58,561 nt of DNA. Source: Clostridia bacterium. Its GTDB lineage: Bacteria; Bacillota; Clostridia; Christensenellales; DTU072. The stretch spans positions 1 through 58,561 of the forward strand of contig JAFXIQ010000003.1 of assembly GCA_017533005.1 (NCBI GenBank), in the 5' to 3' direction. The notes under the pieces are model-generated. The model ran no database searches, was not told the DNA's origin, and worked only from the letters and a program-made list of their open reading frames with translations. Below, in pieces: positions 3 through 56,953 of this stretch. Numbering within the stretch: position 1 is the stretch's first letter; the number at the start of each line of letters is the position of its first letter. Both the position numbers and the translations under genes were made by a program.

Positions 3-3000
3 GATTATAAAAACCTTGATTTACCGATTTCGGCAGAGCTTAAGTTTGCAGATGAAGACGAAGAATTCATTCTCACTAGAAAAGTAGAAGAGAATACGAA
101 CGGCGAAGTAGTTGAGAGTGCAGAAGTTACGAAAGCAGGAGCTACGGTTGCTAGTGGCAAAGAAGCTGTAGACGCATTCGTTTATGAACACGTGGGATTA
201 AACGCAAAAGCATTTAGCGCACTATTCGCTATTGAACGTGAAGAGAACCAACTTCTTGCAGGCGATACCATCACGCGTGAAACTTTCGTTGCAGAAAAGA
301 TGAGCGAACTTACTACTTCGGAAGAAGTTATGGAAAAGGTCGCGTCTTTCAAAGAAGAAGAAAAAGCGATTCTTGCTTACATTGACAGCATCAAACCTAT
401 CAGCAAAGTAGAAATTAGGGACCAACAAATCGTTGTTGATAGTCGTAGAATCGTTCTTGACGGCATAAGAGAAGAAATCGACAAGATTTCACAAGAAGTT
501 GGCTTCGCAGAGAAGTATCAAGAAGAACAAGCACTTTACTACGATGCAATCGCAAAACTAGAAGCGCTCAATGCAAGAAGCGAAGAAATGACAGCGCTTG
601 CTAACAGAGCGTCGTTAAGTAACGAAGCTCAAGCTATAGCCGGCATTTATCAAAGTTACGAAGAAACCAAGGCGCGTTTAGCCGGTGTTCGTAAGGGACT
701 TGCAGAAGAACAAAAGAAGGTTGATGCACTCAAAGCAAAAGTTGAAGAAGGCAAAAAGAGCCTTGCTGGCATCACCGACGAATACGCAAAATCTGCAATC
801 AAGAGCGAAGAATATCACGAAAAGCTCAAAGAGCTTGTCATGCTAGGTTCTACAGAACCACAAGCTCTTCGTTTGAAAGAAAGCGTTGAAAGTTACTACA
901 AAGTATTCGATGCACAAATCGCAGGTGTAGAAGAACGTAAAGCCGTTCTAGAAGAACAATATCTAGCGTTAAACGCAGCTTGCATAGAATTGACTCAGAA
1001 AAAACAAGCTATCAGAGACGCTGTTGATTACAAGAAAGCCGTACAAAGAGGAGCTGTTCTAGAAGTTGACGTCGTTAGTAGCCAAGCACAACTTGTTGCA
1101 CTAGAAGAAAAAGTTGAAGAACTAGGCAAAGAACGCGCAAAATTATTCGAAAAGAAGATGGATGCAACCGAGCTTGCTAGCGAACTTCGCACCAAGCGTG
1201 CAAATCTAGATAAAGCCGTTCGTGGCAAGAATGCAGATGCAAAGACGGCGCTTAACAACGCAAGCTTGTATTCACACACGCTTTACAATAAGCACTTGGC
1301 TGTTTCTAACTACGAAGTAGAAATTGCAGCTATCGAAAAGAAAATTGAAGAAGTTAAGCTTGCGCAAGCAACATACGGAGAAAAGCGCGATAGGCTTCTA
1401 GTTAGAAAGCAAGAAGTTAGCGCACACAGAGAAAAGCTAATTGCTAAACTTGACCTATTCAACGAAAAGCTTACCGAATACGAGAGCCACAACAGAATGA
1501 GTGATTTAGCAGACGACGTTGAATACGGCGAAAGATGTCCTATTTGCGACGGTTTCGTAACGCTTAAGAAAGCGATTCCGCTACGCGATTCGAGAGCTAT
1601 TGTAGACCAAATTGATGCTCTCAAAGCCGAGATAGAAAAAGATACCAACGCTCTTATAGCAGCAGAGAGCTCAATCGGACAATTCGATGCAGCAACCACT
1701 ATAAGTTCACAATACCTAGTCGCATTGGAAGAATCCAAAACACAAAAAGAAGTGCTTATGGACGGTATTCTACGCGAATACGGCGTTAATAGCGTATCCG
1801 AATTGTTTGCAAAGGCAGAGGGTGCAGTAGAGAGTTACAACCGTAAAGTTCTCAACTACGATGCACTACGTGCAACGCTCTACGACCTAGACCAACAAGA
1901 AAGCATTATCGTTGAATGTAACGCAAAAATTGCAAAAATCGACAACGAACTTCTACCCACTGCAGTTCAACAACAAGCCGAAATCGAAGCAAAAGTTGCT
2001 GACATTAAAGCCGAATACGAGAATTTAGCAACAACGTATTTTGCAGGCGAGAGCGCTAGAGACCTTCTCTTGAAACTACAAGTCGTAGAGAAAGAATACG
2101 AAACCCTAGAGAAAGAGCTAGAAGAAAAAGAAGACAAGCTTCGTGAAGTTATCGCAGAGAGAGATGACCTACAAAAGGCTACGATGGCATACGTAGCACG
2201 CACAATCCCCGTAGTTATCAACGGCAAAGAATATTCCTACCAAGACGTTGTTGCAAAGGTATACAGCGATAACGTTCGCGCGCTTATTGCAGAAATTCAA
2301 GACGCTGACGACAAGAAATCATCGACAAAGGTCAAACTAATGGGTGTTAAGACTGTTGTCGACAGAATGGAAAAAGAAAGCGAAGAAGTCGAACGCGCAT
2401 TCATAGCTAGCGTTGCGAAGGCAGACGCTATGGAAGAATCGGCGATGGGCGTATTTGCTGAATACGAAGGCAAGTTCCAAGAACTAGGCATTAACTCTTC
2501 TCGCGACTTAGAAAGACTTATTCTTGACGAAGCAACTATTGCTCGTTACAGCGCAGAGCTTATAGCTTACGATGAAGAACTAGTCGGCACTAAAGAAGCT
2601 ATCAACGTATACCAATCGGGAATTACCGCACACGCAGGATATTACGACAACTACGAATCTAACGTAAAAGCTCTTGCAGAGCTCAAGGAAAAGGAAGAAG
2701 TCGCGATTATCGACCTTGGCAACTCAATGGCAGACATAAAAGAAATGCAAGAACGCTACGAAGCCTTGAGCCTTGCGAACAAGAAGCTAGTAAAAATTCA
2801 AGAAAAAATCACCGACTTTGAAGGCATTTCAGTAGCGGTAAAAGAAGGCGCGATTATAGCTAAAGACATCGCACAAGTAGTGATTGAAAGAGCTAACGGT
2901 ATAATTAAGACGATTTCCGGTGGTAGATATTTCATAGAAACCGCTGAAGACGGCACCGTAATTCTCAACTCACAAAAGGGAAAAGTTAGAACGGACAAGT

Positions 3001-27733: not shown

Positions 27734-27746
27734 ACAGGAGAAAACT

Positions 27747-30700
27747 ATGAAAAACTTTAGCAAAAAATTGTTAATTTTACTAGTGCTGATGCTCATTGCA
27801 ATTACTGCAATGACAGCGTTCGCATGTGGGGAAGAAGAGGAGGACACCAATCCTACACCGTCACAATCAGGTAAAATCGTAGTTTTACAAGACGGCGATA
27901 ATATCTTGAAAATGCTTGACGATATTAGTGAGTTGTCAGAATACATTCCCACGATAAGCGACCCATCGCTAGGTTTTTACGGTTGGTACGTAGATAAGGC
28001 TCTCAGCCAAGAATACGATGGCAGTCAAGACGTATCTACGCTATATGCTAAATGGATTAAGAAGACTTTCACCGTCAAATTCTTGAACTATGACGGCACG
28101 GTACTTCCCGTTAACGGAAACAACACGCAAATCATAGAATACGGCGAGAGTGCTATAGCCCCCGAAACTCCCACCAAACCGGGCGTAGAGTTTACAGGTT
28201 GGAACGTTCCTTTTGATAACGTTACTTCGAATTTAACGGTTATGGCAACGTTCTCTAGCGAGCCACAATTTTTGACGTTCTATGCGGAGGACGGCACGGA
28301 GATATTTAGCCAAAAATTCGTAGAAGGCGCCAACGTAACGAGCTATTTTAACGCTCAACTCGTTCGCGCGGAAGAACTTCTTCCGGGTGGTATCGAGTTT
28401 GATACTTGGTGTACGGACGAAGCTCGTGAAGTAGCCTTTACGGAAACCGATGAAATCATAATGAGTAGCGCACCGCTTACTTTGTATGCGCGTGCAAAGA
28501 TGAAGAACATCGAGCAACTCAAGATTATACCTTCTAGAAACGACTTCAGATACGATAGAGGCGGTTTCGATTTAGTAGCAGATTTCTTGGATTACAAAGA
28601 GCTTCAATACAACTATAAGTGGTATAAAGCTAACAAGCCGGGAGAAATTTTATACGAAAGCAATAGTGCAACCTTTGCTGTTCCTTGTCAAGACGCAGGC
28701 GAGCACGTATTTGTCGTAGAAGTTACCGCTAGTTACAAAAATTACGCACCCAAGGTATCGGTTGCAGAAGGAATTGTCAATATAGAATTAGGCAAACTCG
28801 AAGGAATATCCGTTGAAGGCAACGAAGTTAACTATACAGGAACCAATCATACTATAGTGGTTAACGGAACCTTCCCCGATGACAGTATAACGTATAGAAT
28901 AAAGGGCGAAACGAGCTATTCAGACCTACCCATAAAGGACGCAGGCGAATATGAAATCGAAACGCGCGTAGAAAGAAAGAACTACGAACCTATTGAATTC
29001 ACAGCTAATGAATTCAACTCAAAAATTCTTAAAATCAACAAAATAGGTCTTACCTTGACGGCGGACAACAAGAGCATTGAATATGGTAAGAACCCACCTA
29101 AATACTCATTTGTATCAAACGGATTGGTAAACGGTGAAACAATCGAGAGTATTGATGCAGAAGTAACAGTAAGTTGCGCATACGAAAAGGGCAACAAGGT
29201 TGATAATTACGATATTGAGATTAAGTGTTCAACACTTACTAACTATAACGTAACGCTCGTTAACGGCAAGTTGGAAGTATCTAAAATTAGTCTTACAATC
29301 AACGTTAAGAGTATGAGTAGCACGTACGGAGATAAAGTACCTACTTACGATTGCACGTTTGTTGGGCTAGACAAGACCAATGCTAACGAAGAAGCCCTTG
29401 TAAGAAATGGTATTAAGTTCGTATGCGAATACGCACAAGGTAGCAAGGCAGGAACGTATACAGTAACGGCACAAGTAGCTCTCGACAACTACAACGCAAC
29501 AGTAGTTGACGGACAGTTGACGGTAAATAAAAAGGACGTAACCGTTACGGCTTCTGCAGAAAAGACCAAGATTATTTACGGCGAATCTGCACCGAATTAC
29601 ACGTATACGATTTCAGGTCTTGTATTGGGCGAGAGTGTTAACTATGCGTTTGGCAAGGAACCCACGCTTTCATGTGGTTATAATCAGGAAGACCCGAACA
29701 ATCGTATCGTAAAAGACTACAGCATCGTAGCGTCAGGACTTGTTTCTGATAATTATAACGTTAAATACGTAAACGGCACTTTGAGGGTAATCAAAAAGGA
29801 ATTAGTGCTAACTCCGATAGACCAAACCATTCAATATGGTGACGCCGCACCTAAAGCAAGTGCAGATACGATTAAAGCAGAAGGACTCCAATACGGAGAA
29901 ATTTTACCATACACCAGCATAGGCTTGTTTATTACCAACACTGAAACCGTTCAATCTTACAAGAAAGGTGACAAAATTGGTTCGAATTACGATATCAGCT
30001 TGGGAACTTATGCTACTAACAACTATTACGTAGTTTATAATAACGCAATACTTACCGTTGAACCGAGAGAACTAAAGGTTAGCGTACTTCCTATGACCAT
30101 AGTATATGGTGATGAAATAAAAGAAGAAGACGTTAAACTCGTATTCGAAGGCTTCTATGGAAGAGAAGACGAGAGCGTTTTGAACTTTGCTGGAATGCAA
30201 ATTCTAGGTTATACCGCAGGTGATTCTGTAGACAAGAAATACGGTTTAAGCGTAGAGGGCATTACGTCCGAGAACTATAATATTGTTTGTGAAGACGTTG
30301 GAGAACAACTTACGGTTATTAAACGTGATTTAAGTATAACCATAAGAGCGTACGACGATATTAAAGCTAATCCTTGGAGTCACGCGATTAGTGTTTCTGA
30401 CGCCAAGACTCACATAACTATTGGCAACTTATATGAATTCGACGCGATTAACGGAACGCTTGCAACCGATTCAGGCGAGTTCGGTTCTTACATCTTCAAA
30501 GGCGAAACGTTAGGCGGACAATTCAGTTGGGCAGAAGCTATTTCTATTTCTAGAAACGACGTTTCAACGCTTGATAACTACAACGTAAGCTACGACTTGC
30601 AAGTTGAAATCGGCACTTACGGTATGTTGATTAGTGAAAAAGAAACCTACTATGACGGAAACTCACACACGCTATCCGTAGAGAGCTTCTACGAGAATGC

Positions 30701-33700
30701 AGAAGTTTTATTCGGAACCGAAGAAGGCAATTATATCTATGATATAAACTCAATCCCCAATTTTGCCGAAGCAGGTAGCTATACTATCTACTACAAGATA
30801 TGGGATAAGAGTGGAGTGCTTACCGGTGAACTATATGCAAGTAAAGTTATTAATATCAAGAAGAGACCTGTAGAAATCGTTGCAGAAGACCTAACGATTA
30901 CTTACGGCGAAGCGCTTCCCACTACCTACAATTACACTATAGAAGGAATGGGCTTCCTAGACGGAGATGGTATTGAAGTTCTAGAAGGCGAGCTACAAAT
31001 CAACAGTAATTATGAATATAAAGGAAAAGTAGGCCAATACGCTATCATTGCAAGTGGTTTGACAAGCGATAACTATGACGTAATCTTCGTTGACGGAGAA
31101 CTTATCGTAGATAAACGTGAACTAACGGTAAAAGCTATTAACAAGAATATGACGTATGGCGATGATATGCCTGAATTCACCGTTACTTATAGTGGTTTTG
31201 CAGATGGCGAAAGCTACGAAGGATTAGGTGGATTGACGGTTACGTTCGACTGTATATACGCGAACAGCAAACGTGCAGGCGAATTTGAAATCATTCCTGT
31301 TTTCGAACAAGAATGGGATAACTACTACCTAATCGCTGATTCAGGCACGCTAAAAGTTGCTAAAAAGGCTCTGTCGTTAAGAGCTGACAACAAAACTATA
31401 GTTTACGGTGATGAAGCTCCGTCGTTTACGGCATCGTCTAGCGATTTTGTACCTGGCGATGATTTGAGCTCAATGACGTCGGTTACGTATTCAACCAAGT
31501 ACGAAAAAGGCTCTGACGTAGGTACTTATACAATTAGCATTAAAGCCACGTCGGATAAGTACGAGATAACTGCTCTCAACGGTAGTTTGAAAGTCAACAA
31601 GAAATCCGTTGCCGTAGATTGGGTAGGAATTAACACGAGCTATACGTATGATAGTACCGATAGAACGGGTGCAATCACTGCGAGCTATAAATCTGTTATA
31701 GACGGTTCAGTTATAACGGCTACCATTACGTTCGGCAAAAAATCCACCGTATTCTTGACGGCAGGCGAATATAGCGTAACTGCAACACCTGCAGATGGAA
31801 ACTATACGTTAACCAACGCAGTTCAGACTGTTACAATGAAAAAAGCAGATTACACGTCTGCATCACATAAAGACGTTACAGGTATTTACGACCCCTATAC
31901 CACACTCAAGTCTTATAAACTCAATACAAACTACTTCTGGACGTATGAAGACAACGTTCCTAACTGCGTAGATAAGAATTACAGCGCTTATTACAACGCA
32001 GACCCAGAGAACTATAACAACTTCTACTTCGATATAATCGTTGAGTTGAAAAAGGCAAGCATCGGATTAAGCGCATTTAATACGACAATAGTTCCCAATC
32101 AAGTGGTAGAAGCTGATTATAATGGTAACAAGTTTGATATAACGCCCAAGATTTACTATCAAGATATGGTAGTCCCGACGGCACACTACACCTTGACGTT
32201 CACCAAGGGCTATGAGTTCACACCGGGTACGTATAAGACGGTTATGTACTTCTCAGCTGACAACTATCAAATGGAGAGCGATAGCGTAACTTATTACGTC
32301 AAGTATAAGAGCGTAAAAATCGGTGCAAACGGCAACAAGCTATACACAATCGAAGACGCATTGAATATTGCAACTTCGGGCAATATCGTTATCGTTACAA
32401 CCGATACCAATTTCGGTGAAAGAAGCGAAGTAGGCGCATATTTATACAACAGCGATAGCTATTACACAGTCAAGAGTGGCGTAACAATGTTGTTACCATT
32501 CAACAAAGACGACACCAAGGGCTATATCCCCGGTGGTGAAGAAGGTGATAATAACTATGATTCACATCCGGAAGACGTAAGCGAAAAGGTATTGTATATC
32601 ACGATGAATATTCCTTCCAGCGTTACGCTAAACGTTAAAGGAACGCTAACGGTTGGTGCCGTTACAAGCGCAAAAAAGGTTATAGGAGCACAAGATAACA
32701 AGCTTGTAAACGACGTTAACGGTAACTATTCGGTTATAAACTTGTCTGGCGATATTATAGTTGATAGTGGTAAGTTAAATGCATACGGATACATTCGTGG
32801 TAGTGGTATGATTAGCACGAACGGTAGCGCATTGATAACCGAAAACCAAATAATCAACGGTTGGACGGGTGGCACGATTTCTGCTGCACGTTTCAGTGGT
32901 GGATATAAAGTAGGTGCCGACGCGCTAATATTCCCTTCAACTATAACTGACGACGATTTCGGACACGACCCCGGAATGTTCCCGTTTAACGATTATTCGC
33001 TAGAAGCTATTACCGTTAAGATGTCGTTGAACTATGGTAGCACTTGGCGTGGTTACATTAAGATTTCTACGAGTGCTCAAGAACTTGCAGGAATGGAAAT
33101 CGTAAATGAAAAGATTTCCGAGACCTATTTGACGTTAGCCTCTTCCAATGCGAACGACGATAGTTCGGGTATGTATCGTATGATGAATAGCGGTAGCAAA
33201 ATTATCAAGACTAGCTCGAACGGAAGAATGAGATTGGAGCTACTAGGCGATATAACCGACGGTTATTCAGCTCTGGAAGTTGGCGTTCTTAAAGTAACGA
33301 TAAATATGTCGTCAAAAAAGGTATTCTTCCCCGTTACAAAGAGGACTGACGTTGTTGTAAGTGGTGTATTTACTCAAAGATATAAGAATAAATATATGCC
33401 GGGCTCTACGCTAACCATAAGCGAAGGCGCAACTTATAACTTGAACGGTAGCATTATTACCTACGAAAAGGGCTTCGTAGATGCTGCTATAGGAGCAACT
33501 TACGGCACGTTTAACGATAATAGTGCGTATGTAATGGTAAAGGGCACAATAAATATTAACGGAGCGTTTGGTGGCGATATTTACGCTACGGAAACGGGTA
33601 AAGTTAACGTTTCTTCATCAGCCGTTACCACAGTTACTTCTAGAGAAGGAACGGGTACGCAAGCAAGAGAGGGCGTTAGCGTTGTATTTACTTTCGTTGA

Positions 33701-33806
33701 AGATGGAACCGTAACACGCACGATGCGACTCAAGAACGCTGACGGCACTAACGTTCAAGGAACTGCAGGCAAGAACTATTCTTACGCAAACGGCAGTTGG
33801 AGCTAA
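27747..33806 (+). CDS. 2019-aa surface lipoprotein/adhesin with InlB B-type repeats and MBG-like repeats
   Basis: Lipobox AFAC; FYGWY..LYAKW and PTKPGVEFTGW; many L.L.ADNK.I.YG...P.Y...NY.V..VNG.L.V repeats. Confidence 0.78.
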   Translation: MKNFSKKLLILLVLMLIAITAMTAFACGEEEEDTNPTPSQSGKIVVLQDGDNILKMLDDISELSEYIPTISDPSLGFYGWYVDKALSQEYDGSQDVSTLYAKWIKKTFTVKFLNYDGTVLPVNGNNTQIIEYGESAIAPETPTKPGVEFTGWNVPFDNVTSNLTVMATFSSEPQFLTFYAEDGTEIFSQKFVEGANVTSYFNAQLVRAEELLPGGIEFDTWCTDEAREVAFTETDEIIMSSAPLTLYARAKMKNIEQLKIIPSRNDFRYDRGGFDLVADFLDYKELQYNYKWYKANKPGEILYESNSATFAVPCQDAGEHVFVVEVTASYKNYAPKVSVAEGIVNIELGKLEGISVEGNEVNYTGTNHTIVVNGTFPDDSITYRIKGETSYSDLPIKDAGEYEIETRVERKNYEPIEFTANEFNSKILKINKIGLTLTADNKSIEYGKNPPKYSFVSNGLVNGETIESIDAEVTVSCAYEKGNKVDNYDIEIKCSTLTNYNVTLVNGKLEVSKISLTINVKSMSSTYGDKVPTYDCTFVGLDKTNANEEALVRNGIKFVCEYAQGSKAGTYTVTAQVALDNYNATVVDGQLTVNKKDVTVTASAEKTKIIYGESAPNYTYTISGLVLGESVNYAFGKEPTLSCGYNQEDPNNRIVKDYSIVASGLVSDNYNVKYVNGTLRVIKKELVLTPIDQTIQYGDAAPKASADTIKAEGLQYGEILPYTSIGLFITNTETVQSYKKGDKIGSNYDISLGTYATNNYYVVYNNAILTVEPRELKVSVLPMTIVYGDEIKEEDVKLVFEGFYGREDESVLNFAGMQILGYTAGDSVDKKYGLSVEGITSENYNIVCEDVGEQLTVIKRDLSITIRAYDDIKANPWSHAISVSDAKTHITIGNLYEFDAINGTLATDSGEFGSYIFKGETLGGQFSWAEAISISRNDVSTLDNYNVSYDLQVEIGTYGMLISEKETYYDGNSHTLSVESFYENAEVLFGTEEGNYIYDINSIPNFAEAGSYTIYYKIWDKSGVLTGELYASKVINIKKRPVEIVAEDLTITYGEALPTTYNYTIEGMGFLDGDGIEVLEGELQINSNYEYKGKVGQYAIIASGLTSDNYDVIFVDGELIVDKRELTVKAINKNMTYGDDMPEFTVTYSGFADGESYEGLGGLTVTFDCIYANSKRAGEFEIIPVFEQEWDNYYLIADSGTLKVAKKALSLRADNKTIVYGDEAPSFTASSSDFVPGDDLSSMTSVTYSTKYEKGSDVGTYTISIKATSDKYEITALNGSLKVNKKSVAVDWVGINTSYTYDSTDRTGAITASYKSVIDGSVITATITFGKKSTVFLTAGEYSVTATPADGNYTLTNAVQTVTMKKADYTSASHKDVTGIYDPYTTLKSYKLNTNYFWTYEDNVPNCVDKNYSAYYNADPENYNNFYFDIIVELKKASIGLSAFNTTIVPNQVVEADYNGNKFDITPKIYYQDMVVPTAHYTLTFTKGYEFTPGTYKTVMYFSADNYQMESDSVTYYVKYKSVKIGANGNKLYTIEDALNIATSGNIVIVTTDTNFGERSEVGAYLYNSDSYYTVKSGVTMLLPFNKDDTKGYIPGGEEGDNNYDSHPEDVSEKVLYITMNIPSSVTLNVKGTLTVGAVTSAKKVIGAQDNKLVNDVNGNYSVINLSGDIIVDSGKLNAYGYIRGSGMISTNGSALITENQIINGWTGGTISAARFSGGYKVGADALIFPSTITDDDFGHDPGMFPFNDYSLEAITVKMSLNYGSTWRGYIKISTSAQELAGMEIVNEKISETYLTLASSNANDDSSGMYRMMNSGSKIIKTSSNGRMRLELLGDITDGYSALEVGVLKVTINMSSKKVFFPVTKRTDVVVSGVFTQRYKNKYMPGSTLTISEGATYNLNGSIITYEKGFVDAAIGATYGTFNDNSAYVMVKGTININGAFGGDIYATETGKVNVSSSAVTTVTSREGTGTQAREGVSVVFTFVEDGTVTRTMRLKNADGTNVQGTAGKNYSYANGSWS

Positions 33807-48393: not shown

Positions 48394-48432
48394 AAATTGT
48401 CGAATAAATTTTTCCATATTGCATAGCAATAA

Positions 48433-48461
48433 TTGCAAAATGCAAGGGAATTTGTTATAAT
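48433..48461 (+). promoter_or_regulatory. sigmaA promoter of purC
   Basis: TTGCAA-17bp-TATAAT with TG extension. Confidence 0.6.
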
Positions 48462-48505
48462 CTAAACATAGGGCACGCCCATAAACAAAAATTAAGAGGT
48501 TTAGT

Positions 48506-49189
48506 ATGAAAAAACTTTATGCAGGAAAAACTAAAGACGTATATCAACTCGAAAACGGCAACGTTTTGCTTAAGTTCAAAGACGATTGCACCGGCAAAGA
48601 TGGTGTATTTGACCCGGGTGAAAACAGCGTTGGCTTAACCATAGACGGTATCGGTAAAGCTAACCTACAAACGTCCATTTACTATTTCGAAATGCTCAAA
48701 GAAGCTGGAATCAAGACTCACTACGTTTCAGCTAATCTAGAAGACGCTACTATGGAAGTACTTCCTGCAACGGTATTCGGACACGGACTAGAAGTTATAT
48801 GCAGACTAGTTGCAACCGGAAGTTTTATTAGAAGATACGGCGAATATATCAAAGACGGCACCGTTCTAGAAGGTGGTTACGTAGAATGCACGTTTAAGAA
48901 CGACGAAAAGGGCGACCCACTAGTAACGGGAGAAGGCCTACAAGCTCTAGGCGTAATGGACCTCGCTATGTTCGAGAGTATGAAAGCTCAAACACTAAAA
49001 ATCACCAACATTGTAGCAGCTGATTTGAAGTCAATCGGACTAGACCTATGGGATATCAAGTTTGAATTCGGATACAACAACGGCGAAGTTATCCTAATTG
49101 ATGAAATCGCTTCCGGAAATATGCGCGTATACAAAGACGGCGTTATCGTACCTCCGGTAGAACTTACCAAGCTAATCAACAACAGATAA
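48506..49189 (+). CDS. purC: SAICAR synthetase
   Basis: [37 protein letters not shown]. Confidence 0.9.
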
Positions 49190-49201
49190 TTAAAAAGAAA
49201 G

Positions 49202-49229
49202 AAAACTCGACTTACAAGTCGAGTTTTTT
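49202..49229 (+). terminator. Intrinsic terminator
   Basis: AAAACTCGACT-TACA-AGTCGAGTTTT. Confidence 0.75.
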
Positions 49230-49269
49230 ACTTTAAACGCAATAAACAATGTTATTTTCGAGGTAAAAA

Positions 49270-49971
49270 ATGAAACCGTATATAGTTTTACATATGCTGA
49301 TTTCCATTGATGGGAAAATAACGGGTGGATATATGAATACCGATGTGGCAAGCGCGCTTTGTGAAGAATATTATCGTATAAATCGTGAGTATAAAGCCGA
49401 TGCATTTGCCTGTGGAAGAATTACCATGGAAGGAAGCTTTACGCAAGGCGTTAAACCCGATTTAACTTCCTACGAAGGCGTTAGATTTCCACGAGAAGAT
49501 TATATTGCTAAACAACACGGCTATTACGCAGTATCAATAGACCCCCACGGAAGATTGGGTTGGTATGGTAGCGAAATTAAAGATGAAGACCCAGGCTACG
49601 ACGACGCGCATATAATCGAAGTATTAACGGATGATATACAAGAAGAGTATTTAGCGTTTTTGAGGGATAAAGGCATATCGTATATCTTTTGTGGGAAAGA
49701 GAAAATCGACGTCAAATTAATGAACGAGAAACTCGTTAAGTTCTTTGGAATTAAAAAGTTGATGTTAGAAGGTGGTGGCCTTACAGACAGCTTATTTTTA
49801 GACGCCGATTGCATTGACGAAATGAGTTTAGTCGTCGTACCGTTGATTGACGTGGATAAGGACGGAATTGATTTATTCGCGGGAAAGAGTTGTAACGTGC
49901 AAGAATACGCCCTTAAGTCTTGCGAAAAACTTACGGCGAATGGATTGTGGTTAAACTACGTTAAGAAGTAA
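49270..49971 (+). CDS. RibD C-terminal/DHFR-like reductase
   Basis: KPYIVLHM..SIDGKI, CGRITM, LMLEGGG, IDEMSLVVVP. Confidence 0.85.
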   Translation: MKPYIVLHMLISIDGKITGGYMNTDVASALCEEYYRINREYKADAFACGRITMEGSFTQGVKPDLTSYEGVRFPREDYIAKQHGYYAVSIDPHGRLGWYGSEIKDEDPGYDDAHIIEVLTDDIQEEYLAFLRDKGISYIFCGKEKIDVKLMNEKLVKFFGIKKLMLEGGGLTDSLFLDADCIDEMSLVVVPLIDVDKDGIDLFAGKSCNVQEYALKSCEKLTANGLWLNYVKK

Positions 49972-49981
49972 ATAAAATAAA

Positions 49982-50010
49982 AAAGGCGCACTCGAGTGCG
50001 CCTTTGTTTT
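49982..50010. terminator. Bidirectional terminator
   Basis: AAAGGCGCACTCGAGTGCGCCTTT palindrome. Confidence 0.75.
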
Positions 50011-50021
50011 TGATATAGAAC

Positions 50022-50600
50022 TTATTTTTCTTCTCTTTCTCTGATTTTTTTGAGAACGGGTAGCTCTCCTATGTAAACGATGGGCTTACCTTTTTCGAAT
50101 AGGAAAAGAGCTTTGCCTTTTAATGCGAGAATACCAACGGCTAGTGGTTCTAGCAAGAACACGATAGAAAGCACTAGCATAAACGCATAAACGACGTAAA
50201 CGAACGCACCGTTTCCGAACCAAGCGTGGAATCCTGCGACTATTGTGTCGAGCATCATAATTTCTCTACCTACGAATCCCATAATACCCACGTTTGCAGG
50301 GAATATAGCGATGAAAACGTAAACTAGTGGTAACGTTAACACGAATGCGAAAATCGTAATACCAAGAGTTAATCCGTTACGCAATTTGTTGTCTTCTATG
50401 GTAAGGGCAACGTTACTGAATAGCATAATTCCACACGACATAGTTGCTATAACGATGATGTATCTACCGAGCGCGTTAGTAATGGCATTGAAAAGTGGGA
50501 GTATTTGCATAGCAGAAACTAGGAATACTAAACCTAATGCAATTATAATTACGGAAAGAGCGAGAAGTGCGATTTGTTTTTTGCTTACGTTTGCTTTCAT
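50022..50600 (-). CDS. Hypothetical 4-TM membrane protein
   Basis: Hydrophobic ORF; start at ATG 50600 after GAGGT. Confidence 0.7.
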   Translation of the reverse strand: MKANVSKKQIALLALSVIIIALGLVFLVSAMQILPLFNAITNALGRYIIVIATMSCGIMLFSNVALTIEDNKLRNGLTLGITIFAFVLTLPLVYVFIAIFPANVGIMGFVGREIMMLDTIVAGFHAWFGNGAFVYVVYAFMLVLSIVFLLEPLAVGILALKGKALFLFEKGKPIVYIGELPVLKKIREREEK

Positions 50601-50732
50601 AACTACCTCACGGACGTTGATACACACATTATACATTAAATTTAACGATTTAACAATAGTAGACGGGCATATTTACATGAAATGACGTCAAATTTTATTC
50701 GCGCGCACTCGTAAGTGCGTGCGAATTAGGTA

Positions 50733-50760
50733 TTGACTTTTGTACAATTACTAGTATAAT
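50733..50760 (+). promoter_or_regulatory. sigmaA promoter of the RyR-domain operon
   Basis: TTGACT-16bp-TATAAT. Confidence 0.6.
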
Positions 50761-50825
50761 TTATTAGTAAAGGTGTGACGTTTCACATAAGCAGGAGAGT
50801 TTTCTTATATCACCAAGGAGAAAAT

Positions 50826-53033
50826 ATGATAAAAGAAGTCGTAATAAACCTAATAACGTCGTTGTGCTTAATATATATGATAGGCATAGTGGGATATTTT
50901 ATTTATAAGGCTTGCGCTACCAACAGAGAAGGCCGTCTTAAATTGATAAAAAGCTTTAGTAAAGGCAAGTTTATATTGATATATTTCGTAGCAGTACCAC
51001 TTTATTGGCTTGCACAAGTTTATGAAGGCGTAGCGATAGGTGGAGCGTTCCTTAACGCAATCCGTTACACCATAGAAATCGTTATCGTTAAATTTAATTA
51101 CTCTGCAACCGATATGTTAATGAACGATAGCATATTCTTCAGAGTAACAATGGATATTTGCAGAGCGCTCGTTATACTCAACGCTACTATTTTTGTCGTA
51201 GGCATACTTGGTCAAAAGATTTTCAATCATTATATGATAAAGAAGGCCGACAAGTCGAAAAAGCCCACCTACGTAATCGTTGGATACAACGATGAAAACA
51301 AAGCCATCATTAAATCTATAATTGCAAGAAAAGACGGAGAAATCTTACTTTTTGCAGAGAATACCGATGAAATAAAAGATTACGCATACGTAAACTGTAT
51401 CGGGCACGTACCTTTCAAAGTGAAGGATGACTTTGCAAAGAGTATAAGTGCAGTTGTAAAAGACTTTGCCGAGCAAAAGATAAATATCATAATCAACACT
51501 CAACGCGATGAAGACAATCTAGTAATCGTGAAGAGCTTGAGCACGTTGATAATAGAGAAAAACCTTGAGAAATTCGACATAAATAACGAAGTCGGGCTAT
51601 CTTGTTTCGTATTTGGCGAGCCGGAAAACGTTGCTACGTTCACGCACTTTGCAACCAAAACCAAAGAAGTTATAAGGTACGTTAACAAGTATAAGCTTAT
51701 TGCAATGGACTTTGTGGGAAGCTATCCTATAACGCATTTTATGAAGGAAGAAATATCTACGGAAACCGCCACTATAAAAGAAGACGTGGACGTAAATATT
51801 GCGCTTATAGGATTTGGAAAAACCAACCACCAAATTTTCTTGACGTCTGTAGCTAACAATCAAGTTATGACCATTGCCGACGGCAAGCTACAAGAAAAGG
51901 TAATTAATTATTATATTTTTGATAAAAACAAATCTAATCAGAACAAAAATCTTAACCACGATTATTTTAGATACGGTAATTTCTTGAAGAGCGCAAATCA
52001 AGAAGAATACTTAACCTTCCCTGCAAAGACTGCGAACGAGAAGTTCTATAAGATTGACGTAAACGACGAGAGATTTTATTTACGATTAGAAAAGGGATTA
52101 CGCGCGAAAGCCGAAGGAAGAAAGGCGTTTAACTACGTCGTTATTGCTTACGGTAGCGATATGGAAAATATTGATTTTGCGGATAAAATCACCGAGAAGC
52201 TCAATGAATGGGGCTTGAAAGACAACACGAAAGTATTCGTAAAAGTTCGCAATACCGACTTAAACGATAACGTAATAGCCGGCGAATACGTTAACGACGG
52301 AAGGTTTATAACGTTTGGTGGCGAAGAGAAGTCTGTTTACAACATAAATTCGATTAAGACGTCTAGTTATGAAGGAATGGCAAAAGCAAGGCACCTATGC
52401 TATAAGAGCGAAGATAAAATTAACGAATTGATGCAGGTTGAGAATAAAGAAGAAGCTCTCAAAAAAATCTATGAAGATGCTATTAAGAAGTGGTATGAAT
52501 GGCATAGAATTCAACGCGAATCTAACGTTTACGCGTGTTTAAGCATAAGACTTAAGCTCAATCTACTAGGCTACGACTACGAAAAGGGCGAGTGGGATGA
52601 AGAAGTCGCCAAGGAAATGATGGATAAGTATCAGTTGAACGATGAAATTCAATACGTAAAAGGTCTTAACGCCCCTGGAAAGAAATACGACAAACCCATA
52701 GTAGATTACGGAGATTGCAACTTTATAGAAGGCACCGTAAGGAACAACTACGCGCAACAAGAGCACCTTCGTTGGAATGCGTACGAAATAAGCTGTGGCG
52801 TACTTCCTGCGAGCATAGAAGAAATCAAGACTATTAGTCACAGAGAGCTCGTTGCAGTGAGAAAGCACGCGAATCTTACCACGTTTGACGGACTTTTAGA
52901 TTATAGAAGAATAATCGCAGAAAAGGACGGAAAAACCGAAAAAGACGTCGACGTAATCAAGTATGATTATCAAATAATGGACGATGTTTGTTGGATTTTA
53001 AAAGATAACGGCTATAAAGTCGTCAGAAGATAA
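50826..53033 (+). CDS. Membrane protein with TM module, two Rossmann/TrkA-like domains and a C-terminal RyR domain (paralog A)
   Basis: Three TM helices; YVIVGY and IALIGFGK; W..W...QRESN...IRLKL.LLG and AQQEHLRWNAY..CG...KHANLTTFD.L. Start at ATG 50826 after AAGGAG. Confidence 0.7.
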   Translation: MIKEVVINLITSLCLIYMIGIVGYFIYKACATNREGRLKLIKSFSKGKFILIYFVAVPLYWLAQVYEGVAIGGAFLNAIRYTIEIVIVKFNYSATDMLMNDSIFFRVTMDICRALVILNATIFVVGILGQKIFNHYMIKKADKSKKPTYVIVGYNDENKAIIKSIIARKDGEILLFAENTDEIKDYAYVNCIGHVPFKVKDDFAKSISAVVKDFAEQKINIIINTQRDEDNLVIVKSLSTLIIEKNLEKFDINNEVGLSCFVFGEPENVATFTHFATKTKEVIRYVNKYKLIAMDFVGSYPITHFMKEEISTETATIKEDVDVNIALIGFGKTNHQIFLTSVANNQVMTIADGKLQEKVINYYIFDKNKSNQNKNLNHDYFRYGNFLKSANQEEYLTFPAKTANEKFYKIDVNDERFYLRLEKGLRAKAEGRKAFNYVVIAYGSDMENIDFADKITEKLNEWGLKDNTKVFVKVRNTDLNDNVIAGEYVNDGRFITFGGEEKSVYNINSIKTSSYEGMAKARHLCYKSEDKINELMQVENKEEALKKIYEDAIKKWYEWHRIQRESNVYACLSIRLKLNLLGYDYEKGEWDEEVAKEMMDKYQLNDEIQYVKGLNAPGKKYDKPIVDYGDCNFIEGTVRNNYAQQEHLRWNAYEISCGVLPASIEEIKTISHRELVAVRKHANLTTFDGLLDYRRIIAEKDGKTEKDVDVIKYDYQIMDDVCWILKDNGYKVVRR

Positions 53034-53064
53034 TAAGTAAGCAGTTTTCTACAAGGAGAAGACA

Positions 53065-55245
53065 ATGAATCATTCAGTAGAAGTTTTAATGTACGCAATG
53101 TCCGTAGTTTTTATACTAGCGATAGTATTGACGACGCTACTATACTTTTGGATTAGGAAGAAGTATTCGTATAAGAAATGGACGGTTGAAATAATCTTTA
53201 TGACGGCGATAGTGCTTGTTTCCACGCTATTTAAGTATCTAGTATTTATGTACGTCAGCGATACGGAAGTACAGGCTAGTGGTTGGGACGGCTACGCGGT
53301 ATTTATTAAATCGCTATACACAACGGTAGGTGGATTGACGTGGGAAGGTCTTGCCGACGGTGGACACGAACCGCTTCCCTTTAGACTCGCGTATTACGCA
53401 TCTTCGATTTACGCAGGCGTTATGACGATAGTCATAATATCAGCGACTGCGAGCTACGAGTGGTACTCAAGACTCTCTTTAATTTTCGGATATGAAAAGA
53501 ACAAGAATATCTATGTTTTCACAGCCGTTAACGAAGAAGCCATTGAAATGGCGGAGAATATCAAAAACACACGTCCCAACGCAAAAATCGTTTTTGCGGG
53601 AGATACGCTAGAGTCTTTTGATAGAAAAGACGAACTTTGCCGTAGGATTATGGCGAACGGATTTTTATATTGGTCGTATTCAAAGGATGAAAAATCTCCT
53701 AAGAGCATAGCAAAAGCACTTCTTCTTAACAATAACAACGCGAACGATTACGACAAGGACTTTGTGGTTTTCGCATTCGAAACCGACAATCATATACCGA
53801 TTGAAGAAGACAATTTAGACGTAGTATTTGGAGATATAAAAGCGCGTATAGAAGCGAAAAAGGATGACAAACTACGTATAGAATATATACTTTTATCCAA
53901 GCGCAACGTCAATTATCAAGCCTACGAGAGCGAAAACAACAAGATGCGAGAAGCTTGGAACAACACGGAAAAAGCTAATGGCGTAGATTATAGCGAAAGA
54001 TACGTTCTCAATGTATGGAACGAGGCTCAAGTCGCAGGAAGACAAGGCGTTCGCAAGCTTATGGACGTAGGATTTATGGACGACGTCGTAAACGGTGATA
54101 AAGGCGATATTCGCGTATGGACTTTAGGTTTTGGTGGAATTGCAGAAGCTATCACCAAAGAAATCTTCGTAGGCACGCCGGGCTTTATGAATGGTAGCGC
54201 GCGTGGTTATAGCGTAGAAGTCTACGATGTTAACGCAGACCAAGTGGAGGGTATTTTCAGGTTGCAACGCCCAACGTATGCTTTTTGTGACGGTAACTGC
54301 ACGGAAGAAGTTGCTGTTTCAGAAAAGCGCGCTCAACTTGGAGTAGGTAAAGATATGTCTTGCCCCGTTTATACTTTCAATCAAGTAGATTGTTTGAGTA
54401 AAGACTTTTCTGATATAGTTGGTGGCACGGCAGAGGCGAGCGAAAAAGGCATTTTAACTCCGGACGTGATATTGGTAGCTACAGGCGATGATTACCGCAA
54501 CGTTTCCATAACTAACGCGCTTCTACAGAGCGTAGTTAATGCAAACGCCGTAAAAAATCAATACGTTCTAGTTAATATTTTCGATGACCACAATAACAGT
54601 TTGATATCCACTTTTGGCAAGAGTTTTGACGAAAACGGCGTGTTAAGAATCAATGATAAATTAACCGTAGTTATTGTAGGCAATATGAGTAATACCTACG
54701 ATTACGCAAGTTACGTAGATTATAAGCGAGAAGGTGCCTTGAAAAATTGGTCTTACAACAACGCTGATTTAACGGATATTGATAAAGAAATCAATGATGT
54801 ATTCTACAAAAAATGCAATGGAGAGCAAATAAGCGATGCAGAAATCGAAAAGATTGCTGATAATATTATTGGTATTGAGAATACGTTTAGAAATATCAAA
54901 AAGGAACAAATCGACGTTGCTTGGAAGAAGTTTTATAGTTTAGATATGTGGAGCAAAGAATCTAACTATAACGTGGTATTTTTAGGTAAGCTATACGGAA
55001 AAATGTATAATCAAGCGAGCCCTGCTACCAAGACGGAAATCTTTACGTGGTATTACGATATGTCCAAAGTAGAGCACGACCGTTGGGTAAGAAGCCATAT
55101 AAGCGACGGTTGGGTGTATAAAGCAAACAAGAACAAAGCTTGCAAGCAACATAATTGCATAATAGAATTTGAAAAGCTAGATAAAAGCACCATTGTTTAC
55201 GATACGCTAAACATTATATGGAGTAGAATTAAGTTCGGTAAATAA
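53065..55245 (+). CDS. Membrane protein with TM module, two Rossmann/TrkA-like domains and a C-terminal RyR domain (paralog B)
   Basis: Three TM helices with pore-helix-like KSLYTTVGGLTWEG; IYVFT and VWTLGFGG; SKESN and SKVEHDRWV.....GWVY....KQHNCIIEFEKLD. Confidence 0.72.
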   Translation: MNHSVEVLMYAMSVVFILAIVLTTLLYFWIRKKYSYKKWTVEIIFMTAIVLVSTLFKYLVFMYVSDTEVQASGWDGYAVFIKSLYTTVGGLTWEGLADGGHEPLPFRLAYYASSIYAGVMTIVIISATASYEWYSRLSLIFGYEKNKNIYVFTAVNEEAIEMAENIKNTRPNAKIVFAGDTLESFDRKDELCRRIMANGFLYWSYSKDEKSPKSIAKALLLNNNNANDYDKDFVVFAFETDNHIPIEEDNLDVVFGDIKARIEAKKDDKLRIEYILLSKRNVNYQAYESENNKMREAWNNTEKANGVDYSERYVLNVWNEAQVAGRQGVRKLMDVGFMDDVVNGDKGDIRVWTLGFGGIAEAITKEIFVGTPGFMNGSARGYSVEVYDVNADQVEGIFRLQRPTYAFCDGNCTEEVAVSEKRAQLGVGKDMSCPVYTFNQVDCLSKDFSDIVGGTAEASEKGILTPDVILVATGDDYRNVSITNALLQSVVNANAVKNQYVLVNIFDDHNNSLISTFGKSFDENGVLRINDKLTVVIVGNMSNTYDYASYVDYKREGALKNWSYNNADLTDIDKEINDVFYKKCNGEQISDAEIEKIADNIIGIENTFRNIKKEQIDVAWKKFYSLDMWSKESNYNVVFLGKLYGKMYNQASPATKTEIFTWYYDMSKVEHDRWVRSHISDGWVYKANKNKACKQHNCIIEFEKLDKSTIVYDTLNIIWSRIKFGK

Positions 55246-55270
55246 GCGAATTTAAGGTTTAAATTTGGTT

Positions 55271-55298
55271 AAAAACGTTACCACAGGTGACGTTTTTT
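55271..55298 (+). terminator. Terminator after the RyR operon
   Basis: AAAAACGTTACC-ACA-GGTGACGTTTTT. Confidence 0.7.
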
Positions 55299-55371
55299 AC
55301 GTTTTATACGTATCAATGTAGTAAATATGAAGAAAAATATTAAAAAGCAAGCAATTTTTTTTATCATATCT

Positions 55372-55400
55372 TTGACAAGAAAAAAGCCGTGTGATAGAAT
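55372..55400 (+). promoter_or_regulatory. sigmaA promoter of gdhA
   Basis: TTGACA-17bp-TAGAAT with TG extension. Confidence 0.7.
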
Positions 55401-55471
55401 TTACCTATCAAAAAATGTCGCAACACTTATTATATAATAATAAGCGAATCTTATAGAAGGAAGATTAAAAA

Positions 55472-56827
55472 ATGAGCTTAAAAAATGAATACCTAATCAA
55501 AGTATTGGCTGACCTAGAAAAGAGAAATCCAGGCGAACCAGAATTCGTTCAAACCGTAACGGAAATGTTCGAAAGCATTGAACCCGTTGTCGAAAAAAGA
55601 CCTGACCTAATAGCAGCAGGCGTTATCGACAGAATGGTAGAACCGGAAAGACAAATTATGTTCCGTGTTCCATGGGTTGACGACAGTGGCAAAGTTCACG
55701 TAAACCGTGGTTTCAGAATTCAATTCAATTCAGCAATTGGTCCATACAAGGGTGGTTTGAGATTTGCACCCAACGTTTATGCTGGAATTATCAAATTCCT
55801 AGGCTTCGAACAAACCTACAAGAACGCATTGACGTCACTTCCCATGGGTGGTGCAAAAGGTGGTTCGGACTTCGACCCACAAGGCAAGAGCGATAATGAA
55901 GTTATGCGTTTCTGCCAAAGCTTTATGACAGAACTATACAGACACGTTGGTCCTAACACCGACGTTCCCGCTGGTGACATTGGTGTAGGCGCAAGAGAAA
56001 TCGGTTACCTATTCGGTCAATACAAGAGACTTACCAATAGATTTACGGGCGTTCTAACTGGTAAAGCAGTTAGCTTCGGTGGCTCACTAATCCGTCCGGA
56101 AGCAACCGGTTACGGTGCAGTATACTACGTAAGAGAACTTCTCAAGCACTTTGCAGACGAAGATATCGCAGGTAAGACCTTTGCAGTATCAGGTTTCGGT
56201 AACGTAGCATGGGGAACTGTTAAGAAAGTTCACGAACTAGGTGGTAAAGTTGTTACTATTTCTGGACCCGACGGATACGTTTACGACCCGGACGGAATTT
56301 GCACGGAAGAAAAGATTAACTACTTGCTAGAAATGCGCGCATCTTGCAGAAACAAGGCTCAAGATTACGCAGACAAATTCGGCGTAGAATTCTTCCCCAA
56401 ACAAAAACCATGGGGAGTTAAAGTTGACGTTTGCATGCCTTGCGCAACGCAAAACGAAATCGGCATGAAAGAAGCTGAACAAATCGTAGCTAACGGCGTC
56501 AAGTACTATGTAGAAGTAGCTAATATGCCTACAACTAACGAAGCAGTTGCATACCTAAAAGCAAACGGCGTTATCGTAGCTCCTTCCAAGGCAGTTAACG
56601 CAGGTGGCGTAGCAGTATCAGGTCTAGAAATGTCACAAAACTCTATGAGAAACTCATGGGCAGCAGAAAGAGTAGAGGCAGAACTCGAGAACATCATGAA
56701 GAACATCTTCAGCGCATCTCTAAAAGCAGCTAACGACTACGGCTTCGGTGACGACCTAGTAGCAGGCGCAAACATTGCAGGCTTTATAAAAGTTGCAGAA
56801 GCTATGAAGGCTCAAGGCGTAGTATAA
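55472..56827 (+). CDS. gdhA: Glutamate dehydrogenase
   Basis: GPYKGGLRF, GGAKGGSDFDP, DVPAGDIGVG, RPEATGYG, GFGNVA, NAGGVAVSGLEM. Confidence 0.96.
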   Translation: MSLKNEYLIKVLADLEKRNPGEPEFVQTVTEMFESIEPVVEKRPDLIAAGVIDRMVEPERQIMFRVPWVDDSGKVHVNRGFRIQFNSAIGPYKGGLRFAPNVYAGIIKFLGFEQTYKNALTSLPMGGAKGGSDFDPQGKSDNEVMRFCQSFMTELYRHVGPNTDVPAGDIGVGAREIGYLFGQYKRLTNRFTGVLTGKAVSFGGSLIRPEATGYGAVYYVRELLKHFADEDIAGKTFAVSGFGNVAWGTVKKVHELGGKVVTISGPDGYVYDPDGICTEEKINYLLEMRASCRNKAQDYADKFGVEFFPKQKPWGVKVDVCMPCATQNEIGMKEAEQIVANGVKYYVEVANMPTTNEAVAYLKANGVIVAPSKAVNAGGVAVSGLEMSQNSMRNSWAAERVEAELENIMKNIFSASLKAANDYGFGDDLVAGANIAGFIKVAEAMKAQGVV

Positions 56828-56953
56828 TAACGCGATATATACTTCGTATAACTTTGTCAAGCCCCCAAATTCTATTCAGTCACATACGCTCTAGTATGCT
56901 CCTGTCATAGAATTGGGGGCTTTTCGCGTTCTACTTGTATCTATCGCGTTATT
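56826..56953. repeat. 128-bp palindromic element, copy 3 (ERIC-like core)
   Basis: AATAACGCGAT...ATCGCGTTATT ends; core CAGTCACATAC-GCTCTA-GTATGCTCCTG. Confidence 0.78.

Follow-up and report, generated by a model that had tools for sequence, protein, structure and literature searches.

The element considered here is a pair of adjacent genes, A and B, on the + strand of a 58,561-nt contig (JAFXIQ010000003.1, assembly GCA_017533005.1) of a Clostridia bacterium, the whole of which contig we refer to as the window. Gene A (50826..53033) encodes a protein of 735 amino acids (aa) that, according to its open reading frame (ORF) and its AlphaFold model, combines a channel-like membrane domain with a pair of RCK-like Rossmann domains and, at its C-terminus, a divergent RyR-like part; gene B (53065..55245), which starts after an intergenic gap of 31 nt, encodes a distant paralogue of 726 aa whose ORF and model have the same layout. 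The reading frame of A can be opened from either 50775 or 50826, of which positions we chose the ATG at 50826 because AAGGAGA lies just 5' of it and because the 99%-identical cluster P0003 is also of 735 aa; the same AAGGAGA precedes the ATG of B. Ahead of A stands a sigma-70-like promoter, TTGACT-16-TATAAT (50733..50760, + strand), that agrees with the consensus at 11 of 12 positions, and B is followed by an intrinsic-terminator-like 12-bp hairpin and a T-run (55271..55297, + strand); both of these signals are consensus matches only, and the promoter-like sites in the region numbered 20 against 16.9 in shuffled sequences. An earlier note on this DNA had described two genes of about 730 aa with a promoter and a terminator of their own, and in terms of such sequence signals the arrangement of A and B as one operon is confirmed. 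Just 5' of the −35 hexamer, between the divergent genes, we also observed a GC-rich imperfect inverted repeat (50700-50727), which could be an operator or the remnant of a terminator.

The assembly of this genome, which amounts to 1.29 Mb in 58 contigs and is 76% complete, contains one copy of each of the two genes. Four runs, one from each of four further studies, likewise yielded contigs with both genes intact and no indel listed inside either; and an independent contig of 10.3 kb was colinear with the window from 48400 to 56855. Since the genes were intact in four independent runs, and since the substitutions listed inside them were mostly synonymous (13 of 20, with 137 further differences beyond those listed), we consider both genes to be under constraint.

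The similarity of A to B, which the earlier note had judged to be low by eye, was indeed imperceptible to BLASTP (best E 3.8), and became visible only between family profiles. One alignment, A1, was composed of A and 50 of its 120 listed matches, taken across the ranking (51 sequences); the other, A2, was composed of B and 14 of its 16 matches, after its own cluster (P0123) and a 408-aa fragment (P0125) were dropped (15 sequences). In hhalign the two profiles matched with a probability of 97.6% (E 4.8e-12) over 444 columns, spanning residues 55-528 of A and 54-566 of B. When the domains were aligned one by one, the second Rossmann domains matched at 90.8% and the C-terminal cores at 92.9% (E 3.7e-7, 43 columns), with no domain-level support between the first Rossmann domains (13.7%). 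Judged by these profiles, A and B are remote paralogues within a single superfamily, whose members are numerous: of 8000 database candidates that were scored for A, at least 331 matched at E ≤ 0.001, named no further than "hypothetical protein" and with no precomputed Pfam domain, and B, for which a word-based search gave 16 matches, had 1588 at E ≤ 0.001 in an exhaustive profile search, with 281 at ≤ 1e-10 and 192 cluster representatives at ≤ 1e-30. NCBIfam gave no match above its cut-offs for either protein.

Membrane, Rossmann and RyR domains

The AlphaFold models are confident, with a pLDDT of 92.0 and a pTM of 0.86 for A, and with 84.2 and 0.81, respectively, for B. In both models the N-terminal domain has three long helices with a shorter, pore-helix-like one before the last, which is the arrangement that the earlier note had read from the letters. 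The pore-domain-like part of A comprises residues 1-146 (50826..51263, + strand), where DSSP assigned helices at 2-31, 50-67, 71-86 (the short helix, after which comes a loop at 87-95) and 103-143; the helices of model B span residues 3-33, 35-64, 73-91 and 104-129. When the models were compared with the PDB by Foldseek, full-length GsuK ranked top for A (E 6.1e-6) as well as for B (E 1.4e-5), and CASTOR/DMI1, TrkA, Slo1 and MthK ranked next for both. In VIA-align, GsuK (4gx5_A) was superposed on residues 37..513 of model A with a Z of 16.8 over 353/375 residues and on residues 34..554 of model B with a Z of 15.9 over 354/375, and full-length MthK aligned from model residues 40-46. Because the global root-mean-square deviation (rmsd) to GsuK is large, at 8-11 Å, the match of the pore fold holds at the fold level only, and the arrangement of the domains in A and B must differ from that in GsuK. 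Three lower-ranked candidates—an S-adenosylhomocysteine hydrolase, a transhydrogenase and a dipicolinate-synthase-like enzyme—were set aside as generic Rossmann matches that leave the membrane domain unexplained. A viral fold library searched with model A yielded nothing at E ≤ 0.001, and phage RyR proteins did not appear in its results either.

The K+-channel filter TVGYG is absent from A and from B, as the earlier note had pointed out. In B, profile alignment and conservation nonetheless delimited a P-loop with a degenerate selectivity filter at residues 83-98 (SLYTTVGGLTWEGLAD; 53311..53358, + strand). The B profile places L-T-[FW]-E-G-L-x-D upon the L-T-T-V-G-Y-G-D of relatives with a canonical filter, B itself reading LTWEGLAD, with T-W-E-G-L-A-D at the aligned place; and within the loop Y85 and G89 are conserved in 14/14 sequences, G90, L91 and G95 in 13/14, and E94 in 12/14. 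In model B the short helix stops at residue 91, so that the filter-equivalent stretch is non-helical, as would be expected of a filter. A, for its part, has no recognisable filter. The K+ signature is thus missing from both proteins, which, as regards the filter, supports the non-K+-selective channel that the earlier note had inferred.

The canonical-filter relatives just mentioned are proteins of about 510 aa from Oscillospiraceae/Clostridia, named "ion transporter", that combine Ion_trans_2, two Rossmann domains and RyR in the same order as A and B and share with them the ATGDD/CTDDD motif and the RyR core. Those proteins, however, keep TVGYGD and have only two membrane helices, whereas in A and B the filter is gone and an N-terminal helix has been added. 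The family of the canonical-filter proteins has 399 database matches, for which "ion transporter" and "ion channel" are the most specific names. A representative from genome G057, of 513 aa, possesses TLTTVGYGD, two Rossmann domains and an RyR tail (Ion_trans_2 51.3 bits, RyR 27.4 bits), and its gene lies directly 3' of that of a 623-aa paralogue, which same pair is present in G106; in addition, such proteins stand beside TIR in G057 and G195. In the G106 protein, the B profile matched the region from the pore to the Rossmann domains and kept the filter in register (i-E 4.3e-6 among the ORFs of the locus). Furthermore, a 644-aa protein of G044 has a membrane part that was matched by both profiles (A1 i-E 6.9e-5, A2 2.9e-8); the link between the membrane domains of A and B runs only through this bridging protein, and the link of A to relatives with a canonical pore is accordingly indirect. 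We conclude that A and B are of K+-channel descent, with the K+ signature lost in both, and we infer that they conduct ions. Ion_trans_2 was matched in 15 of the 101 genomes of the order that were searched, which is how the 513-aa protein of G057 came to light; in the whole of the window's genome (G000) no match was obtained, the absence being unproven in an assembly that is 76% complete. At another locus (L077, G195:C34:12479-14589), a protein of 582 aa that has a canonical K+ filter and an RyR tail ends 9 nt before a same-strand TIR_2 match; the gene model there is provisional, the TIR ORF having been displaced in the ORF map by a long ORF on the opposite strand.

Fold matches and conservation assign to tandem Rossmann/RCK-like domains the residues 147-530 of A (51264..52415, + strand) and 147-560 of B (53503..54744, + strand), the latter stretch containing in addition the motif ATGDDYRN. 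In VIA-align, model A was superposed on the DMI1 ring with a Z of 16.2 and an rmsd of 4.1 Å over 332 residues (model 142..735), and on KtrA with a Z of 15.7 and an rmsd of 3.6 Å over 258/268 residues; for model B the values were 16.0 with the DMI1 ring and 15.4 with KtrA (rmsd 3.6 Å, 261 aligned). CASTOR gave a Z of 15.4 with A and 14.7 with B, and TrkA 15.3 and 14.6. The Rossmann-start motifs that the earlier note had listed proved to be conserved in the second domain of each family: in A the loop GFGKTN precedes an invariant Asp366, with G329, G331 and D366 each in 51/51 sequences, and in B the loop GFGGIA precedes Asp388, with G355 and G357 in 15/15 and D388 in 13/15, the other 2 having Glu. 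In the first Rossmann domain the glycine loop is degenerate (GxNxxN in A). The glycine loop of the second domain, together with the acid of its strand 2, would fit the binding of a dinucleotide or an adenine nucleotide, as in KtrA, TrkA and GsuK.

The C-terminal domain of B, at residues 641-726 (54985..55242, + strand), is an RyR domain of the Repeat12 type, recognised by phmmer, profile and conservation and containing H671, W674, H696 and D713. In phmmer against the PDB, B aligned ungapped to the RyR1 chimera 6uhi (E 4.4e-12), and to repeat 1 of RyR1, RyR2 and RyR3; the B profile against the PDB likewise found RyR (E 2e-16). With Pfam RyR (PF02026) B itself scored 26.8 bits, the cut-off being 27.4, and 9 of the 15 members of its family were matched. 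H671, W674 and H696 are present in 15/15 sequences, as are E670 and R673, and D713 in 14/15. The corresponding part of A, residues 636-727 (52731..53006, + strand), was recognised by hhalign to B as an RyR-like core (QQEHLRW ... RKHANLTTF ... KYDY) with insertions, among which one of 9 residues; E646, H647, R649, W650, H681 and D714 are each present in 51/51 sequences, D714 having been assigned by eye as the equivalent of the Asp of B. Pfam RyR matched 0 of the 51 A-family members, and neither the A profile nor the C-terminal 110 residues of A found an RyR entry in the PDB. The two profiles, A1 and A2, did match overlapping stretches of DNA in G018, G044 and G057, and in one Atlas neighbour cluster 20% of the members had RyR. 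The C-terminal W...ESN and EHxRW motifs reported in the earlier note were thus found in both families, the former in each consensus and the residues of the latter in 51/51 sequences of A and 15/15 of B; but the RyR assignment that the note had attached to them holds as a clear repeat for B, and in A only as a divergent RyR-like core unseen by Pfam.

RyR domains occur in bacterial, archaeal and viral proteins, for which a function was given as unknown (PMC7399828). In phages, as reported in two preprints of 2026, single RyR repeats bind or cleave 2'/3' cyclic ADP-ribose (cADPR), a signal made by TIR enzymes, as homodimers, with the ligand contacts H75/W78/H100/D117 in RyDEP and H129/W132/H154/D171 in RyR Tad (PMC13232231; 10.64898/2026.06.04.730250). 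The residues H671/W674/H696/D713 of B have the same spacing as those contacts—H-x-x-W, a His at +25 and an Asp at +17—the mapping having been made by spacing and by way of the animal RyR alignment, without direct alignment to the phage proteins. We accordingly describe the RyR repeat of B as a predicted pocket for a nucleotide of the adenine/ADP-ribose type.

Association with TIR genes and pairing of A with B

The distribution of the superfamily was followed in a sample of 201 genomes of the order, in which TIR was sought by a Pfam TIR_2 search and was matched in 58 genomes. The A1 profile matched 28 of the 201 genomes and the A2 profile 29, and the matches, when those within 3 kb were merged, made up 45 loci in 37 genomes. 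A TIR_2 match lay within 5 kb of 15/45 of these loci, against the 0.71 expected if the TIR matches were placed at random within each genome, and within 10 kb of 16/45; the 15 TIR-adjacent loci span 10 taxonomic families. At the level of whole genomes, TIR was present in 33/37 of those with the superfamily and in 25/164 of those without it.

At several of these loci the genes form same-strand clusters, namely TIR, paralogue and canonical channel in G057; TIR, TIR and a channel-like protein in G030; TIR, TIR, a 639-aa ORF and an A-like protein in G007; and a channel-like protein, a 103-aa RyR-only protein and TIR in G044. The three closest-scoring homologs of A (L033/G187, L034/G042 and L035/G080) are near-identical, yet they come from three taxonomic families, and in each the homolog shares a cassette with two further genes, one for a double-GNAT protein (366 aa) and one for a TIR protein (434 aa) that has a methyltransferase-like part; in G187 and G080 that cassette adjoins the PADLOC candidate gene PDC-S01. 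A near-identical cassette in three families, with different flanks in G042, points to a recent horizontal transfer.

The co-occurrence of A and B, which the earlier note had named as a check, was followed from both genes. In the order sample, 11 of the 12 full-length A loci had no B-like ORF in the flanks fetched, the exception being the window, and 6 large B-like genes stood alone. When a genome collection was scanned with the B profile, 13 full-length B loci were found, and in 6/13 of these an A gene ended 12-50 nt before B; a seventh had a truncated A-like gene two small ORFs upstream, and in the remaining 6/13 B was alone. The A-then-B operon thus recurs in 7/13 B loci from other genomes, three of them with a TIR-type gene within 3 kb; but with A alone at 11/12 loci of the order sample and B at 6/13, the heteromer that the earlier note had inferred is no more than a candidate assembly.

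To these loci we added a tree of 20 A proteins (quick IQ-TREE with SH-aLRT support; the short A-like proteins and the distant relatives were omitted, save one outgroup), on which the pairing with B required 3 changes, compared with a mean of 6.3 when shuffled. On that tree the A of the window groups with the A of L090 and of L094 (SH-aLRT 98), both of which belong to A-then-B operons: at L090 a 350-aa TIR protein (TIR_2 67.3 bits) is encoded 2.9 kb upstream, and at L094 a gene for a TIR-methyltransferase diverges from A at about 600 bp. At L085, B is followed by a TIR-like STAND-TPR protein, whose score of 27.2 bits compares with a cut-off of 28. The TIR calls at L082-L094 come from Pfam scans of 10 hand-picked ORFs (at L082, L085, L086, L090 and L094), so that others could hide a TIR. 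Altogether, the A-then-B operon is a conserved module, and it is TIR-linked in the window's own clade. Just 5' of the A and B genes there is also a conserved pair of genes, scanned with Pfam at L082 (1977-4733), for a ~305-aa unannotated protein and a ~610-aa coupling protein of the TraG/VirD4 type; a similar ORF of about 610 aa, judged by its size and N-terminal sequence only, takes the same position at L084, L085 and L089, and this pair of genes suggests carriage on a conjugative element.

Other arrangements were observed as well. At L086 (1275-7651) a B without A comes after genes for vWA, Ser/Thr-kinase, TerD and unannotated cysteine-rich proteins (the last zinc-ribbon-like by eye), a gene set that we take to be a Ter/TerY-type stress or conflict cluster; and the upstream ORFs of L087 (1-7921) begin with sequences similar to those of L086. 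At four loci (G178:C209, G040:C2, G099:C2 and G115:C196) A-like proteins of 416-433 aa adjoin B-like or RyR-bearing proteins of 645-973 aa. The short A-like proteins consist of the second Rossmann domain and the RyR-like end, with no membrane part, and so represent the pair in a split or soluble form.

As to the immediate surroundings in the window, a 204-aa protein with some six hydrophobic segments is encoded divergently from A (50022-50636, − strand) and was kept in all four strain variants; as a candidate member of the module it was rejected, having no Pfam family and no relative at any of the loci fetched. The RibD_C-like gene beyond it (49270-49971) is subject to strain-level presence or absence within 49190-50022, inasmuch as it is present in the contigs of X8 and X9 but skipped in those of runs X10 and X11, where 49190 connects with 49979 and with 50022; in a synteny comparison, the neighbour was found in 2/21 genomes of the family, too few to judge an insertion. 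Farther away, at 24578-33806, the window contains two very long adjacent ORFs on the + strand, of 1051 aa and 2019 aa.

A candidate nucleotide-gated effector

The genes for relatives of A and B have TIR genes as neighbours so frequently that the most likely role of the superfamily is as the effector arm of a Thoeris-like signalling based on NAD-derived molecules. For A and B themselves we incline, if only slightly, to the interpretation that they are nucleotide-gated, non-K+-selective, Thoeris-like membrane effectors, with the conduction, the gating and the ligand all predicted. According to this proposal, A and B would be inner-membrane proteins with an extra N-terminal helix, a pore domain resembling M1-P-loop-M2, and a degenerate filter. 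GsuK and MthK provide the analogy for their assembly, in which the membrane domains would come together as a tetrameric pore and the Rossmann domains would make up a gating ring in the cytoplasm. The RyR repeat, to judge from the residues that contact signals in the phage proteins, would serve as the pocket for a nucleotide of the adenine/ADP-ribose type, the binding of which might open a non-K+-selective pathway for cations and thereby collapse the ion gradients. In the window's genome, the A-B pair would have to depend either on a TIR encoded elsewhere, such as the orphan on contig C39, or on an endogenous nucleotide.

Several observations weigh against this interpretation, of which one set concerns the proteins themselves. 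The pore with tandem RCK domains that the earlier note had recognised is the best structural description of both models, but the corresponding Pfam families do not bear it out, there being no match to Ion_trans_2 (PF07885) in A, in B, or in the 51 A-family and 15 B-family members, and none to TrkA_N or TrkA_C in A, B or any aligned member of either family; since the curated family models miss A and B, the support comes from profiles and folds. The earlier note had named a lack of RyR/RCK hits among the outcomes that would refute it, and at the level of Pfam that part did come about. The membrane profile of B aligned with 17 genuine pores in the same register at only 22.8% by hhalign, a value that is weak alone, and that of A at 0.9%, its stretch 87-95 showing no recognisable filter; between the membrane domains of A and B the probability was 0.3%, with no domain-level support. 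The likeness of A to RyR derives from one profile-profile match, the one at 92.9% (E 3.7e-7) with the C-terminal core of B, and PADLOC (2023 models) assigned 0 families to A, to B or to the canonical-filter relative.

The other set concerns the genomic context. A TIR within 5 kb is missing at 30/45 loci, many of which are on short contigs; some of the A2 matches counted were RyR-only, and, by their ORF maps, some 12 of the 15 loci with a TIR nearby encode membrane channel-like proteins; and, as related genomes are not independent, the P values of the TIR association are overstated. On the window's 58.6-kb contig the Pfam TIR_2 search found no TIR, the flanks of the operon being FeoB, SAICAR synthetase, the RibD_C protein, a glutamate dehydrogenase and an esterase, and the independent 10.3-kb contig shows the same arrangement around A-B. 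Elsewhere in the assembly there is a single TIR match, a 340-aa protein encoded on C39 between an asparaginase and FtsK, which shares with the TIR protein of L090 the TIR domain alone (34% over 111 aa). The suggestion in the earlier note of an anti-phage effector is hence strengthened for the superfamily by its strong linkage with TIR at 15/45 loci, but not by the window locus, with its housekeeping flanks, no TIR and no PADLOC match. The case for defence here stands on homology and clade and not on local context; we regard the comparative support as strong for the superfamily and moderate for this operon.

If, as an alternative that concerns the pairing alone, A and B each formed a homomer of its own and shared no more than their transcription, for different ligands or by redundancy, a possibility to which we give a little less than an even chance, the 11 full-length A genes without a B-like ORF and the 6 B-like genes alone in the order sample would be readily accounted for, as would the 6/13 B loci without A; and membrane domains that cannot be aligned by profile would be unusual for the subunits of one pore. 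That alternative is harder to reconcile with an A directly 5' of B by 12-50 nt in 6/13 loci and nearby in a seventh, with the clustering of the pairing on the A tree, or with the recurrence of RyR-bearing pairs in G057, G106, G178, G040 and G099 and of a 103-aa RyR-only gene in G044. Moreover, the single RyR repeats with solved structures function as dimers, and in animal RyRs the repeats work in tandem pairs, on which grounds a dimer between the RyR of A and that of B is plausible.

If, alternatively, A and B were housekeeping cation channels gated by a metabolite or nucleotide—ATP, ADP, NAD(H) or ADP-ribose—and serving ion homeostasis or the response to stress with no part in phage defence, then the flanks of the window locus, its own promoter and the lack of a PADLOC match would be as expected; the two could even be the only K-channel-type proteins of a genome (76% complete) in which Ion_trans_2 was not found. 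The RCK rings of KtrA, TrkA and GsuK bind ATP, ADP or NAD, according to the titles of their PDB entries, and the Repeat12 of the animal RyR has been described as a site for ATP and drugs and proposed as a metabolic sensor. We nevertheless think this rather improbable in view of the patchy distribution (A1 in 28/201 genomes and A2 in 29/201), the strong linkage with TIR, the near-identical A cassettes in three families, the TraG/VirD4 or PDC-S01 neighbours in relatives and the loss of the K+ filter. Still more doubtful, in our estimation, is that the proteins are not channels at all, and that their membrane part anchors an RyR enzyme or sponge that removes or buffers ADP-ribose-type signals or NAD metabolites. 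B does keep, by position, the catalytic dyad of RyDEP (H671, D713), and the filter region of A is unrecognisable; furthermore, 6 of the 8 phage homologs reported as tested bound the signals without cleavage (PMC13232231), so that RyR repeats can act without a channel. The GsuK-like layout is conserved, however, the P-loop motif of B is under constraint and the relatives keep a TVGYGD filter, whereas a tandem Rossmann ring would be of no obvious use to a sponge.

The interpretation of A and B as nucleotide-gated effectors can be further placed among the systems already known. GsuK (PDB 4GX0, 4GX1, 4GX5), a K+ channel with two RCK domains per subunit, whose entries are titled as ADP- and NAD-bound, is the best structural match to both models, though it has a canonical filter, lacks the extra N-terminal helix and the RyR repeat, and is only 11-14% identical. 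The rings of CASTOR/DMI1, KtrA and TrkA superpose on the cytoplasmic part of A and B, in which, unlike in those rings, the glycine loop of the first Rossmann domain is degenerate and an RyR-like module is added C-terminally. The C-terminus of B falls within the same Pfam family as the phage proteins RyDEP, a cADPR glycosidase, and RyR Tad, with an equal spacing of the ligand residues; as described, those are small soluble anti-defence proteins, whereas A and B are host membrane proteins that bear the repeat as their C-terminal end. With the animal RyR Repeat12, to whose repeat 1 B aligns ungapped, B has in common that the repeat is cytoplasmic to a cation channel (in B, as predicted); but the animal repeats are in tandem and belong to a channel of a different family, with six helices and 5,000 residues, and the repeat is all that is common with B. 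In type X Thoeris, a TIR enzyme is combined with a predicted ion-channel effector, ThsK, in a verified anti-phage system whose signal was given as unknown (10.64898/2025.12.03.692087). That system couples TIR with a channel, whereas the window locus is without an adjacent TIR; and, the comparison with ThsK being confined to the description in the main text, which there gives no sequence, domains or mention of RyR, the present superfamily may or may not be the same as that effector.

A bolder version of the effector proposal, which we consider unlikely but worth stating, is that A and B are the host counterpart of the phage RyR sponges, being pores of K-channel origin in which the single RyR repeats of A and B pair into a Repeat12-like module, sense a TIR-made signal of the ADP-ribose type and open a pathway for cations. 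If that were true, prokaryotes would possess a pathway from a cADPR-type signal to an RyR channel that foreshadows the cADPR/RyR signalling of animals, and the TIR-methyltransferase partners in the window's clade would make a yet undescribed signal. A full-text search of the literature found no description of a host-encoded RyR-domain channel as the effector of a TIR system, and the preprints on phage RyR repeats, in the text available, name no host protein with the same fold (PMC13232231; 10.64898/2026.06.04.730250).

Since the families of A and B are annotated as hypothetical and are common in the Clostridia of the animal gut, the present result improves their annotation. Beyond that, the superfamily would supply the missing host side of the phage RyR repeats, in the form of an RyR-type nucleotide pocket on a channel-like protein that is linked to TIR, and the A-then-B pair would be a natural test of heterodimerisation between two single RyR repeats. 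A bacterial RyR repeat on a cation channel would, finally, bear on the origin of the animal Repeat12 and of its proposed sensitivity to cADPR and ATP.

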